From the UHGV virus genome UHGV-0072830: 12,846 nucleotides of DNA, one strand, 5' to 3'. This DNA comes from a virus. Of this stretch, positions 7,208 to 12,846 are shown piece by piece; position 1 is the stretch's first letter; every line of letters starts with the position of its first letter. The translations under genes were made by a program, and so were the position numbers. The notes below the pieces were generated by a model that was not told the origin of the DNA, ran no database searches, and was given only the letters and a program-made list of their open reading frames with translations.

Positions 7208-8146
7208 TTAATTACGCAGCAGCGTTGAAATATCAACGTCCAGGTCTAATTCACGGAAAGCCTGACGCAGATAATCTTCGTTAACACGCTCACCTTTACC
7301 GTGAGCCGTCATGGCGGCAAGGCGAAGTGAATGATTCAGAATGCGAAGCGCACCTGGTTTCTGCGCAATCTGCTGTAATAACTCCAGTTCTTTTTCGCCG
7401 TTAATCTGCCAGGCATCCGCAATAGCTTTTACATCGGCTTTTTTTGTTTTATTAATTGCAGTGCGCTTTGCAATACGGGAAAACAGACGGGCAAATTCAA
7501 CCGTTCTGTTACCCCCCGTCATATTTGAATAAACCCGGTGATTTCCCATCAGCACAAGGCCAATACGGGTTGATTCCTGTAACAGGCGGAGTTCTTCCAG
7601 AACTTCGGCACCAAGATGATCAGCTTCGTCGATGATAACCAGCCCCTGTGTACCTTCAAGGCGACGTCGCAGGGCGCGGGAGAGCGGCCCTTTACGGCGT
7701 GGTGCGTCATTCATTCCCAGCTCAAACGCCAGTTCAGTAAGACATTCCAGAACGCTGGCACAGGATGGCGTAATGGTGATCATCCAGACATTGTTATTGG
7801 TGCGGCGATATTCACGGGCCGCTTCGGTTTTGCCCACACCAGGATTGCCACATACAACAGCAATACTTTCAGTCAGGCTGGCAAAACGCATACTTGTCCA
7901 GATTTGTTTTACCGTCTGCGTTTCCACAAAGCGGGGCGGTTCAGGTAGTTCTGCAACTGCATGATATTTTTCCAGCCAGCGTTGCAGAATTTGTGAAACA
8001 CGCTCGTTATCCCCGTTGTACTTATCATTGATAAAACTACTGATAGTTCCGGTAGAAAGTCCGCTCTCAAGAGCAATTTGTTTAAAGGTGGTTTCTTCAT
8101 TTTCTACAAGCGTGCGCAGTCCTGCGCGAATATCGGAAATATTCAT
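7208..8146 (-). CDS. B: Transposition protein B (AAA+ ATPase target DNA activator)
   Basis: 312-aa ORF with Walker A GNPGVGKTE and Walker B LVIIDEADHL. Sequence matches my recollection of MuB. Confidence 0.93.
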   Translation of the reverse strand: MNISDIRAGLRTLVENEETTFKQIALESGLSTGTISSFINDKYNGDNERVSQILQRWLEKYHAVAELPEPPRFVETQTVKQIWTSMRFASLTESIAVVCGNPGVGKTEAAREYRRTNNNVWMITITPSCASVLECLTELAFELGMNDAPRRKGPLSRALRRRLEGTQGLVIIDEADHLGAEVLEELRLLQESTRIGLVLMGNHRVYSNMTGGNRTVEFARLFSRIAKRTAINKTKKADVKAIADAWQINGEKELELLQQIAQKPGALRILNHSLRLAAMTAHGKGERVNEDYLRQAFRELDLDVDISTLLRN

Positions 8147-8184: not shown

Positions 8185-10185
8185 TTAAATGGCTTTTTTA
8201 CGTCTGTTCTGTTCCAGAATATCCAGCGAATGATTCAGATATTCATCACGCTCAGTTTCGTATTCATCATCACGCTCCTGATTCTTCACCCGTTCCATAT
8301 TACCGGAAGGCCGGAAAATGCCGACAATTCGTGATTCTGGTGCTTCAGGTTCGGCTATCTGCGGCAGCAGCTCTGCCACTTCCAGTGCATCCATTTGTTT
8401 CTGTGCCTTAATCGCTGCTTTCGTCGCAGATTTCAGTTGTTTCTGGCGGCGGCGATATTCACGGCCTGCCGCAGCATCATTAAACGCAACAGGTGACAGA
8501 CATTCCGCTTCACAGATAAACCGACCGTCCAGGGTGTAGCAATAAACCGTGCTGTGTAACTGCTGTGGATCAAATCTGACCACAACTTTTTTCACTCCGG
8601 CATTCATTAACGCCATGTTGTAATAAACGTTTTTCGCACCTTTAAGGGAGCCGCCAACTTTAAGCGCGAACTCGCCTTTACGTGAAACGTTCACCGCCTC
8701 GGCAGGCAGTAACAGCATCCGTTTTTGCTCTTCGGTAGGCTTACGCACAATCGTTCTGGCGTATTCACGCTCAAAAACGTCATCAAACGAAAGTTTGCCT
8801 CCGCACATTTCTGTTTCACGGCCTGTTCTGGCATTGAACATCGCCACACCTTCGGCAAGGGTTTTCAGAAACAGCTCTGCATCAACAGCGCGGTCGCCAT
8901 AGTTATCAGGTTTTGCCTGCGGATTAGGCCCCGTATATGCGCCAGCCAGTGCCGGATGCTTATCAACGTATTCCTCAAGCCCACCAACACCGAAAGCACG
9001 TTCAACAGGTTTTGCCTGGCCCCAGCCTTTACCGGCAACAACGCTTGTCCAGTGCATTTTCGCCCCCATCAGTAAAAACAGTCCTTTTGGATCGTCCTCT
9101 TTTACCTTAAAGCGGTAGCGATTGGGCGCGCCTCCCGTCAGCCATTTATTCGCAGCACCACGGGTGTTATCAATGGTGATGTGAAAATCCTCCGGGATAC
9201 CGTAGCGAGTCACAACATCCATGAACGAGAGGCGAATTGAATCAATGTTCTCGCTCACATCGCAGCGCCAGCCCAGAATTTTTCGGGTTTTCACATCCTG
9301 CCAGAACCATGTTTTCGGGCGGATCACATCACCGTTAAACCAGCGTACAAAGACGTTATGCAGATAACCGTCGCCGTTGATCCACTGCATGGCGTCCAGG
9401 TGTTCCACAGTTCGTTGTTGTGCCGGTATCAGATGCATCAGTGCATGTTCACCTTCACGGCAGGCAACAACCATTGCCTCGTTCAGTTGCTGAATCCGGC
9501 GAAAGGCCGTGGCACGGGAGGGAATACTCCAGCCATGCTCGCGGGCTGCCAGTTCCAGACGCTCATAACATTTGCGGAAGGCGGGTTTTTCCGGTCGCAG
9601 ATAATCTGCAATCAGAAACTGCCAGGCATCCTCGTCAAATTCACTTTTGTGAACATTGCGACGGGATGCACCACGTCCATCAACAAGAGCAGCCGCCCAG
9701 TCAGGCTTCGCAAACTTCTGTACCTGGTAATACTTGTCACGCAAAGTGGATGCGCTGACCTGGTAATGTCCTGCAACGGTCGCAAAAGCCGTTTTTGTTG
9801 AAATCCCCTGGTTCAGCATTTCGTCTGCGGCCTGAACCGCAGGCAACCATTTTTCAGCAAGTCTGCGCTGGGAATCGCTGGCGTTATCCCATTTGCTCCA
9901 CAGCGCCTCGCGATCATAATCGTGGGCTTCCAGCGTGGGGCGGGCGATTTCAAAACGGCCCATGCTTGTTTCAATCTCTCCTTGTCTAAGCAATAACGCA
10001 GCTTGCGTTTCCTTTGGTAAAGATGAGATATGAAACTCATAGGCTACTCCTCTTACCCCGTGTATCTGTCGAAACACCCACTGTTCTAACCTTGCTTTAC
10101 GAGAGATCGCGCTAGAGGATTTTGGAAGACCTATCAGCCCTTCTAATTTCTTTGCAGAAAACCAATCATTACATTGTGGTTGCAT
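8185..10185 (-). CDS. A: DDE transposase A (Mu/D108 family); likely start ATG 10185 (track ORF starts at TTG 10191)
   Basis: About 666 aa. The body matches my recollection of MuA (from [11 protein letters not shown] onward). N-terminal ~60 aa differ from Mu and resemble the repressor N-terminus in this window. GAGGT SD 7 nt before ATG 10185. Confidence 0.95.
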
Positions 10186-10187
10186 TT

Positions 10188-10406
10188 TCAATACCTCGAA
10201 GGCCAGAGGTCTCGTGGCTCAACTCCCAATGCATCGGCAATAATTCTTTCACCCCGAGGGTAAGGTTTATCCAAGGCATTTTTTACCGTAGAGATAGAGA
10301 GACCGTTCTCACGACCAAGAGCTGCTAGGCTTTTTCCTCTTTTGCGCAGATCAGCAACAATGTCGTATCTGCTTTTGTCTTCACATTTACTTTTCTTTAT
10401 CGCCAT
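10188..10406 (-). CDS. ner: Ner-like DNA-binding regulator (negative regulator of early and repressor transcription)
   Basis: 72 aa from ATG 10406. C-terminal ...[13 protein letters not shown] resembles the Ner family. Stop is 2 nt before the A start. First gene of the early operon. Confidence 0.8.
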
Positions 10407-10415
10407 AAAATGCAA

Positions 10416-10605
10416 TCCTCACAAGCTACGCCATCAGCTACGCCGCAAGGTAGCTGACAAGGTATGCAGCAATGTTAGTGTGAATACATTGTCAATGCAA
10501 TGATGTATTCAAATATTTCGTTTGAATTTCATCTATCTTGATGATTTTAAAATGAATATATTTTTGTTTCTTTGAATACACAGTGTATTTAAAGCGAGGT
10601 TTGTG
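10416..10605. promoter_or_regulatory. Immunity/operator region between ner and c; expected to hold divergent early and repressor promoters and the operators (transposition enhancer in Mu-type phages)
   Basis: 190-bp AT-rich divergent intergenic region. Contains palindromes built on TGAATACA half-sites at 10481-10511 and 10570-10594, and a GC-rich dyad at 10434-10457. Confidence 0.75.
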
Positions 10606-11121
10606 ATGACACAAGAATGGTTTTCAGCTAAAGAGCTACAAGGGGTTGCTGGTCTTCCGTCTTCAGCAAGTAGTATTAGCCGCAAAGCAACTAATGAGGG
10701 ATGGAAAAAGAGACAGATCAAAGGAGTAAAGGGAGTTGCTTATGAATACCATATCAGCTCATTACCTGATGCCACTCAGGCAGAATTAGGAGGGGCGCAG
10801 TTATTAGATAGCGATAAGCCAGCTTATAAGTTAGCTTCTGTGTTAATGGCTTTGGTCGCAGAGTTAGAACCAGAGGAAATCCAGAGGGCATTAAAGCTAC
10901 TTAGTAAAGGCGGACTTGGAGCACTAATGCCAAGTATCTTTGATCAGACTCAAATCCAATCTCTGCACGGCGTATCGCGTGAGTGCATACAACTAGCCCA
11001 AATGCTAGAAACTTTACCAGCAGATGCGCGCAAAGAGATTTTGTCAGAGTATGGTATTCATGAACAGGAAGGTTTTGTAGCTCCTTCACAAGAACCACAA
11101 GATGTAAAAAAAGCCGTATAA
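10606..11121 (+). CDS. c: Lysogenic repressor c (D108 type)
   Basis: 171 aa from ATG 10606 with GAGGT SD. N-terminal domain is homologous to the N-terminus of transposase A in this window. C-terminal LKLLSKGGL...[13 protein letters not shown]...[12 protein letters not shown] matches my recollection of the Mu repressor C-terminus. Confidence 0.85.
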
Positions 11122-11432: not shown

Positions 11433-11455
11433 TTTTCGTACTTCAAGTGAATCAA
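11433..11455 (-). repeat. Transposase end-binding site L1 at the phage left terminus
   Basis: ttttcgtacttcaagtgaatcaa, followed by the terminal ...taca at 11459. Confidence 0.8.
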
Positions 11456-11459
11456 TACA

Positions 11460-12846
11460 ACGGGGGATTACTCAATTGGTTTGCTAAGTCAAACGAGTGG
11501 AAACCTGAATACTGACACCATAATAAGAGTCAACTCTGACGGTTCGGTTACCCCCTCTTTTTCTGACGGAGATGATACATTTATTGTTACTGCGGGTAAT
11601 CACGCAGTCGGCGTTCTTGCGTGTGCATCTCCCGGAAGCGCGCGTGCGTGTGTATCTTCTCTTGATGAAGAAAGTACTACCGATACAGGAAGTAATGAAA
11701 ATAATGCCATAGCAAAACTGGATATGGCAAAAGGGGAGATCACAACCCACGGAACAGAAAGTTATGCCGCGTACGCTAATGGCACTGTCGTCAAGGCTGG
11801 TGACACGCTTGATTATACCAATGCCAGCGTTACATTAACCGATGTTGATATCACCACGCATGGGGACAATGCTCATGCCATCGCTGCCCGCCAGGGGACA
11901 GTTTCATTTAACCAGGGAGAAATTTATACAACGGGTCCTGACGCCGCGACTGCTAAAATTTATAATGGCGGCACGGTGACGCTGAAAAATACATCTGCAG
12001 TCGCGCATCAGGGGTCTGGAATTGTGCTGGAGTCTTCCATAAATGGTCAGGAAGCAACGGTAGATATTTTATCTGGTAGCTCACTACGGTCAGCAAATGA
12101 AATCCTCTACCATAAAAATGAGACGAGTAACGTGACCATTACGGATAGTGAGGTATCATCGGCTGCAGATGTTTTTATCAATAATATTAAAGGTCATTTG
12201 ACCGTCGATGCAACTAATTCAAAAATAACGGGTTCAGCTAATATTTCAACAGATGTTAACACTCATACCTATCTGTCGCTTTCAGATAATAGTACCTGGG
12301 ATATTAAAGCTGACTCAACGGTGAGCAACCTCACGGTTGATAATAGTACGGTCTATATTTCCCGGGCAGATGGACGGGATGTCGAACCAACAAGATTAAC
12401 AATAACTGAAAATTACGTTGGTAATAATGGCGTATTGCATCTCAGAACTGAATTGGGTGATGATAATTCAGCTACGGATAAAGTCGTTATTAATGGAAAT
12501 ACCTCTGGAACAACCCGAGTTAAAGTTACCAATGCAGGAGGCAGCGGAGCTTACACGTTAAATGGGATAGAGATTATCAGCGTTGAGGGGGAATCAAATG
12601 GGGAATTTATTAAGGATTCGAGGATTTTCGCCGGTGCCTACGAATATTCATTAACCCGAGGTAATACCGAAGCGACCAATAAAAACTGGTATCTGACTAA
12701 CTTCCAGGCAACGAGCGGCGGTGAAACAAACTCCGGAGGAAGTTCAGCGCCTACTGTTGCGCCTACCCCCGTCCTGCGCCTCGAAGCTGGAAGTTACGTC
12801 GCCAACCTGGCAGCCGCTAACACTCTTTTTGTTATGCGTCTGAACG
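11460..12846 (+). pseudogene. Host autotransporter (type Va) passenger-domain gene fragment, 5'-truncated by the prophage insertion; runs off the window end
   Basis: 462 stop-free codons verified in frame from the base after the phage terminus to the window end. Nearest upstream in-frame stop (11448-11450) is inside the phage end. No signal peptide or plausible start. Ser/Thr/Asn/Gly-rich beta-helix-like sequence ends with the autotransporter junction motif PVLRLEAGSYVANLAAANTLFVMRLN. Confidence 0.75.

Follow-up and report, generated by a model that had tools for sequence, protein, structure and literature searches.

A predicted bipartite operator and transpositional enhancer in the immunity cassette of a PhiR68_1-type Mu-like prophage

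The closest described counterparts of the DNA region studied here are the operator and enhancer regions of the phages Mu and D108. The Mu enhancer sits some 1 kb away from the L end, overlaps operators O1–O3, and is made up of two MuA-binding clusters with an IHF site between them; its sites are bound by the repressor and, as the enhancer, by the N-terminal domain of the transposase (PMC3145075). The lambdoid OR and OL regions resemble the present region in that palindromic repressor sites overlap divergent lytic and lysogenic control elements. However, the lambdoid repressors have a lambda-type helix-turn-helix instead of a winged helix, their second regulator is Cro instead of Ner, and their operators have neither a role as a transposition enhancer nor a bipartite layout centred on an IHF site. 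In D108, two operators flanking an IHF site have reportedly been footprinted by Kukolj and DuBow (1991-92). The GenBank records of Mu and D108 contain no operator annotation, the early promoter and ribosome-binding sites of Mu being the only such elements annotated, and the PhiR68 preprint makes no mention of the c–ner region. The correspondence with the mapped D108 operators proposed below is drawn from sequence homology and from this reported work. Here we describe the c–ner region of a Mu-like prophage contained in a stretch of DNA of 12,846 bp, referred to as the window.

The prophage and its immunity cassette

A Mu-like prophage makes up most of the window, which contains its left 11.46 kb in reversed orientation. 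The c/ner/A region of the prophage is 99.8% identical to that of Escherichia phage PhiR68_1, in which c, ner, A and B are annotated (for coordinates in the window, see Table 1). A Mu-type left end was found at 11459. The DNA past this end (11459–12846) contains an E. coli autotransporter adhesin gene that is common to most E. coli genomes, and this wide occurrence suggests insertion of the prophage within or beside the adhesin gene. The Mu terminal sequence TGTATTGA, which reads TCAATACA here (11452–11459), is one mismatch away from the operator half-site described below; this likeness is probably a coincidence, because Mu and D108 have the same ends but differing operators.

The sequence of 10024–11001 matches neither Mu nor D108, whereas both of its flanks are 95–98% identical to these two phages. 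The boundaries of this mosaic are sharp, and the cassette between them has at most a distant relationship to its counterparts in Mu and D108. The span of heterology with Mu establishes that the DNA-binding domains, ner and the operators have been swapped jointly, as a single cassette. The N-terminal winged-helix DNA-binding domain of the c repressor (around residues 1–62) is encoded within this cassette, which includes c codons 1–132. Overall, the repressor is 46% identical to that of Mu and 40% identical to that of D108, the identity residing almost entirely in the C-terminal part. Based on the heterology of the cassette, the low identity of the repressors and the alignment of D108 DNA at only 68%, the window is predicted to carry a third immunity type among the Mu-like phages of E. 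coli. Of 5426 complete E. coli genomes, 15 were found to carry this PhiR68_1 immunity type, which is also that of phage PhiR68_1 itself.

Table 1. Features of the window and, for the half-site arms, the number of alignment columns that vary among nine prophages of the PhiR68_1 type
Feature	Position	Strand	Variable columns	Remarks
B gene	7208–8146	-		
Transposase A gene	8185–10185	-		
N-terminal DNA-binding domain of transposase A (I-alpha equivalent)	9976–10185	-		PF02316, E = 4e-26
Heterologous immunity cassette, compared with Mu	10024–11001			A codons 1 to ~54, ner, operators, c codons 1–132
ner gene, 72 aa	10188–10406	-		PF13693, E = 4e-25
Ner-type operator (predicted)	10434–10457			TCAGCTAC-N8-GTAGCTGA; between putative Pe and ner
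Early promoter Pe for ner-A-B (putative)	10472–10500	-		TTGCAT (10500–10495)-17-TAACAT (10477–10472)
Distal operator cluster, O2-like (predicted)	10480–10513			three phased half-sites
Distal half-site	10480–10488	+	0/9	GTGAATACA
Distal half-site, degenerate	10492–10499	+	1/8	TCAATGCA
Distal half-site	10504–10513	-	1/10	TTTGAATACA
Spacer between operator clusters	10512–10569			58 bp, 83% A+T; homologous to the D108 spacer
IHF-core homologue	10534–10546	-		AATCATCAAGATA; 7/9 specified positions of WATCAANNNNTTR
c-proximal operator, O1-like (predicted)	10570–10594			two inverted half-sites around 3-bp centre 10581–10583
Proximal half-site	10570–10580	+	3/11	CTTTGAATACA
Proximal half-site	10584–10594	-	0/11	CTTTAAATACA
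c repressor gene, 171 aa	10606–11121	+		PF02316, E = 2e-22; matches to PDB 1g4d and 1tns

Palindromes, half-sites and promoters between c and ner

The intergenic region between c and ner is 199 bp long, with an A+T content of 66%, and a preliminary description had noted two long palindromes in it. Both are present, 866–979 bp from the left end at 11459 and between c and the ner-A-B operon. In the first, TGAATACAT-N13-ATGTATTCA, the 9-bp arms (10481–10489 and 10503–10511) form a perfect inverted repeat, as described. The second, CTTTGAATACAC-a-GTGTATTTAAAG (10570–10594), likewise has the form described, with 12-nt arms and one mismatch pair (G10574/T10590); it stops one base short of GAGG (10596–10599), the Shine-Dalgarno sequence of c, which is situated 6 nt upstream of the c start codon, ATG, at 10606. 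The stretch between the two palindromes is indeed AT-rich (Table 1). The exact sequence TGAATACA occurs three times on the two strands of the window, all within 10481–10580, compared with around 0.4 copies expected from length alone.

We evaluated these repeats against 1000 dinucleotide-preserving shuffles of the 199-bp region. Perfect inverted repeats with arms of 9 bp or longer and a spacer not exceeding 30 appeared in 3.9% of the shuffles (p ~0.04 for the first repeat), repeats with 12-nt arms, one mismatch or none and a spacer no longer than 3 in 0.2% (p ~0.002 for the second palindrome), and three exact copies of any 8-mer in 2.3% (p ~0.02). A looser statistic, which counted 8-mer families with at most one mismatch, was not significant in the shuffles (p = 0.22). 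From the sequence of the window alone, the significance of the repeats is moderate, and suggestive rather than conclusive. It could be supposed that they are functionless chance features of AT-rich intergenic DNA, and the first repeat taken by itself, as well as the loose 8-mer-family statistic, would agree with this; the second palindrome and the three exact 8-mer copies argue against it, as do the comparative data given in the next section.

The arrangement in the window is close to that in D108. The two phages have the same gene order, the c–ner intergenic region of D108 being 185 bp long, and their DNA is 68% identical over 10410–10653. Next to the start of c, D108 has the palindrome TTTAAAATCC-tag-TGATTTCAAT, with 10-bp arms and a 3-bp centre, and the proximal sites can be aligned as CTTTGAATACA-cag-TGTATTTAAAG here and ATTGAAATCA-cta-GGATTTTAAA in D108 (Mu orientation reversed). 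The distal sites can be aligned as TGAATACA / TCAATGCA-atga-TGTATTCA here and TGGAATCA / TAAATCA-atag-TGATTTGA in D108, in which the half-sites are phased and follow one another in the same order and orientation as in the window. Because of this site-for-site alignment, the repeat with the 13-bp interval is regarded as the outer pair of a phased cluster of three half-sites, spaced 11 and 12 bp from centre to centre; the inverted repeat reported previously stands, but its interpretation as a simple palindrome does not. Further similarities to D108 are the homologous spacer, which carries ATGATT in D108, the 17-bp spacing of the early-promoter hexamers, and the layout of the Ner repeat, AGCTAC-N8-GTAGCT. 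The two phages differ in that D108 has five phased distal sites whereas only three are conserved in the window, and in that the proximal palindrome of D108 covers the ribosome-binding site of c whereas that of the window stops just before it.

In Mu, too, the operator/enhancer, also known as the internal activation sequence, is situated between c and ner at a distance of about 0.9–1.0 kb from the left end, and the repressor and the transposase both have PF02316 domains; the Mu early promoter lies under the distal cluster, where the window has the putative Pe. In contrast, the Mu sites are 11-bp repeats of the CTTTT type that have no resemblance to GAATACA, and Mu has the perfect IHF core TATCAACGCGTTA where the core in the window matches at 7 of 9 positions. 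The comparison with the operators of D108 and Mu, which had been proposed as a check on the palindromes, supports them by sequence homology in the case of D108, and yields dissimilar sites in the case of Mu. Mu has a third operator, O3. No third operator cluster was found in the window on the ner side (10407–10479); besides the Ner-type repeat, this side has just one core, at 10408, which carries one mismatch. The layout is a two-cluster, D108-like one, and differs from the O1-O2-O3 arrangement that is specific to Mu.

The putative early promoter Pe, with a start predicted near 10465 on the - strand, overlaps the distal half-sites at 10480–10488 and 10492–10499. Its hexamers match at only 7 of 12 positions, and none of the -35 bases varies among the prophages of the type. 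A simple hexamer scan detected homologously placed - strand hexamers in all the other immunity types examined (8–9 of 12), and the hexamers that it detected in Mu (TTTACA-17-TATCTT) fall inside the annotated early promoter at 991–1028 of AF083977.1. With repressor on the distal cluster, the early promoter would be covered.

The second palindrome had been thought to overlap the repressor promoter, which would imply autoregulation. A sigma-70 scan detected no match overlapping the second palindrome, and the proposal is taken here as no more than a possibility. Only one + strand match, TTGTCA-17-AATATT, reaches at least 9/12. It falls within the first palindrome, and it was rejected as the repressor promoter because it lacks conservation in the type, both of its hexamers being variable. 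An extended -10 candidate, CTGACA-16-TAGTGT (10454–10481), is confounded with other elements. In other types, namely L039 (the best, 10/12), L031, L043 and D108, there are + strand hexamers with a -10 ending 37–53 nt before the c ATG, and their counterpart in the window, ATTTCA-16-TAAAAT (10526–10553, + strand), matches at 8 of 12 positions and is not conserved within the type. Promoter-like + strand hexamers are present at equivalent positions in L019 as well, and all of these are candidate repressor promoters facing the proximal palindrome. Since the hexamers of the other types are found just upstream of their proximal palindromes, a repressor promoter with its +1 at or just before the proximal palindrome is possible.

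Variation within and between immunity types

The conservation of the region within the type was examined in an alignment of nine prophages of the PhiR68_1 type (93–100% identity). Nowhere in the region is variation higher than in the zone of 10480–10594, where 29% of columns are variable compared with 4–5% in ner, the Ner repeat and the DNA-binding domain of c. Within this zone the five half-site arms have 5 variable columns out of 49, compared with 29 out of 67 in the rest (Fisher p = 7e-5, for arms defined after the alignment was seen); the four arms as originally described have 8 out of 42 compared with 26 out of 74 (p = 0.05). All three positions of the centre of the proximal palindrome (10581–10583) vary, and so does much of the spacer. 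The conservation of the middle distal half-site is confounded with that of the -35 hexamer. As a separate observation, the non-contact positions of the operator zone are variable in 43% of columns among the nine prophages, around twice the silent-site expectation based on the rate of variable columns in the neighboring ner and c codons.

A scan of IMG/VR yielded 59 loci, including Mu, D108/SfMu and several uncharacterized c/ner/A modules. The types that have a c–ner spacer of 185–211 bp share one scaffold (alignment A3), in which a palindrome ends approximately 10 nt before the c ATG and a cluster of distal half-sites, phased at 10–12 bp, is found around -125 to -70. Between the two clusters a match to YAANNNNTTGATW, the IHF core, is present, a - strand promoter lies under the distal cluster, and an inverted repeat adjoins ner. 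Six other immunity types have a palindrome 10–36 nt upstream of c, each with its own core sequence; it was located at -36 to -10 from the c ATG in L014, L031 and L043 and, by inspection, in L039 and D108. The depletion of variation in the arms, within a zone that otherwise varies more than any other, and the recurrence of the architecture in these six types largely refute the view that the repeats are chance features of AT-rich DNA, which we regard as hardly credible. It is from these comparative data, within the type and across types, that the palindromes emerge clearly above chance.

The core of the half-site goes together with a recognition segment that is common to c and A within each type. 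The core in the window is GAATACA, and the segments are SISRKA in c and AISRKA in A; the same pair of segments accompanies the core CAATACA in L014. In D108 and L022 the core is GAAATCA, with NITRKA in both c and A. The remaining types have GAATTCA with NITRRA in c and NVTRKA in A (L039), TTAATCA with NITRKA and NVTRQA (L031), and [TC]AGAAAC with GINKKA and GVNKKA (L043). The cores of the proximal palindromes recur mainly in the distal region of their own type: there were 8 exact matches in 7 matched comparisons, and 9 in 42 comparisons between mismatched types. It may be that the recognition segment (SISRKA, NITRKA, GINKKA and so on) predicts the core (AATACA, AAATCA/TAATCA, AGAAAC), so that c and A have a readable specificity code, a suggestion that we put forward as tentative and rather doubtful. 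The L014 locus (1360–1500) is a separate immunity module with an AATAC core, in which the recognition segments of c and A are identical to those in the window; its distal cluster has one extra phased site and is about 11 bp longer. This module may be co-immune with the type in the window. A scan of genome contigs with the repressor alignment yielded a single distant locus (L009, 1501–1683), which has 52% identity to repressor residues 1–62 and is located on a contig of a Leptolyngbyaceae cyanobacterial metagenome-assembled genome; this domain may reflect an unexpected host, or contamination.

The cross-type alignment also bears on the spacer, which the preliminary description had considered a plausible IHF or bending site. 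A scan with the IHF consensus is uninformative by itself, as a 7/9 match is no better than chance in the AT-rich spacer, and the assignment made here is by homology, not by the consensus match. The sequence TATCTTGATGATT (10534–10546) occupies the same alignment columns as the perfect YAANNNNTTGATW cores of L039 and L031 and the one-mismatch cores of D108, L014 and L022. Within the PhiR68_1 type, none of the 9 consensus positions of the core is variable, compared with 2 of the 4 N positions. The positional homology and the invariant consensus positions favor the earlier proposal of a putative IHF site.

Palindromes at a constant position but with different sequences are also what a conserved RNA hairpin would predict, and the palindromes might act mainly in the RNA instead of as protein-binding DNA: the proximal one, folded within the leader at the 5' end of the c mRNA just before the ribosome-binding site, would affect the stability or translation of the message. 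The + strand RNA of 10570–10594 folds with 11 bp; in this RNA the mismatch G10574/T10590 would become a G-U pair, and the A to G changes seen within the type at 10575 and 10578 keep G-U pairing too. However, two transitions that preserve G-U pairing are expected by chance in about one case in four, and the fold (-12.9 kcal/mol, z = -1.4) is equaled by 18 of 200 shuffles. Moreover, a hairpin would explain neither the presence of the same core ~70–100 bp away in the distal cluster of each type nor the way in which the core tracks the recognition segment of the repressor and transposase. We therefore consider a role mainly at the RNA level very improbable.

The repeats might alternatively be the sites of another regulator, either Ner, which also acts in the c–ner intergenic region, or a host factor such as CRP or Fis; the sequence TGTGA-N6-TGTCA (10479–10494) is, by inspection, loosely similar to a CRP site. 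Ner, however, is accounted for by a separate conserved repeat adjoining ner, TCAGCTAC-N8-GTAGCTGA, which has a D108-like layout and is preceded by tandem AGCTACGCC repeats from 10424. The layout AGCTAC-N8-GTAGCT was found not only in D108 (L002, 996–1025) but also in L014 and L022, and only 2 of the 54 columns of 10407–10460 vary within the type. D108 Ner binds 11-bp inverted repeats with 8 bp between them. As for host factors, their sites would not change core with the immunity type, in step with the phage DNA-binding domain. Occupation of the repeats by a regulator other than the repressor and transposase is in our estimate very improbable.

A predicted operator and enhancer

The N-terminal parts of c and A have 65% identity across 60 residues (E = 3e-23) and both match PF02316, the Mu DNA-binding domain of Pfam. 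Among known structures, the c domain matches the I-alpha domain of MuA (PDB 1tns) and the DNA-binding domain of the Mu repressor (1g4d). Because the repressor and the transposase have this homologous N-terminal winged-helix domain, the two proteins would be able to read the same sites. We infer that 10480–10594 is the bipartite operator and transpositional enhancer of the PhiR68_1-type Mu-like prophage, a reading that we hold to be likely. That the palindromes are repressor operators, as had been suggested from the first, is supported by their location between c and ner, by the conserved arms and by type-specific cores that track the recognition segment of the repressor; the half-site of the repressor is predicted to be roughly TTTGAATACA. 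That they also form the enhancer bound by the N-terminal domain of the transposase is favored by the identity between c and A, by the PF02316 domain in both and by their distance from the left end.

A scheme consistent with these features would be as follows. The c repressor would bind through its N-terminal winged-helix domain at both clusters, that is, at the proximal site, an inverted pair just upstream of the ribosome-binding site of c, and at the distal cluster, which would overlie the early promoter reading on the - strand into ner-A-B. A bend at the IHF-core homologue in the spacer, presumably through binding of IHF, would bring the two clusters together in one looped repressor–DNA complex, and this complex would shut off early transcription. 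In lytic growth, the N-terminal domain of transposase A, with nearly the same recognition segment, would bind the same half-sites, and the region bound by the transposase would act as an enhancer that helps to pair the prophage ends. By competing for the half-sites, the repressor would be able to block transposition directly too.

These results leave the understanding of the Mu-type switch unchanged, as the switch would be an ordinary, well-understood one in an uncharacterized variant. They provide, from sequence, a predicted operator/enhancer for a third immunity specificity of Mu-like phages in E. coli, with a concrete candidate half-site, TTTGAATACA, and a map of sites for work on binding, immunity and enhancer swaps, and the cross-type set offers natural specificity variants of the winged-helix domain of the Mu repressor and transposase. 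If the specificity code were true, the high variability of non-contact operator positions within the type might reflect selection instead of drift, and the PhiR68_1 and L014 types would be co-immune and enhancer-compatible despite their differing number and spacing of sites. Mu-like prophages could then be sorted, from sequence alone, into groups of compatible immunity and enhancer.
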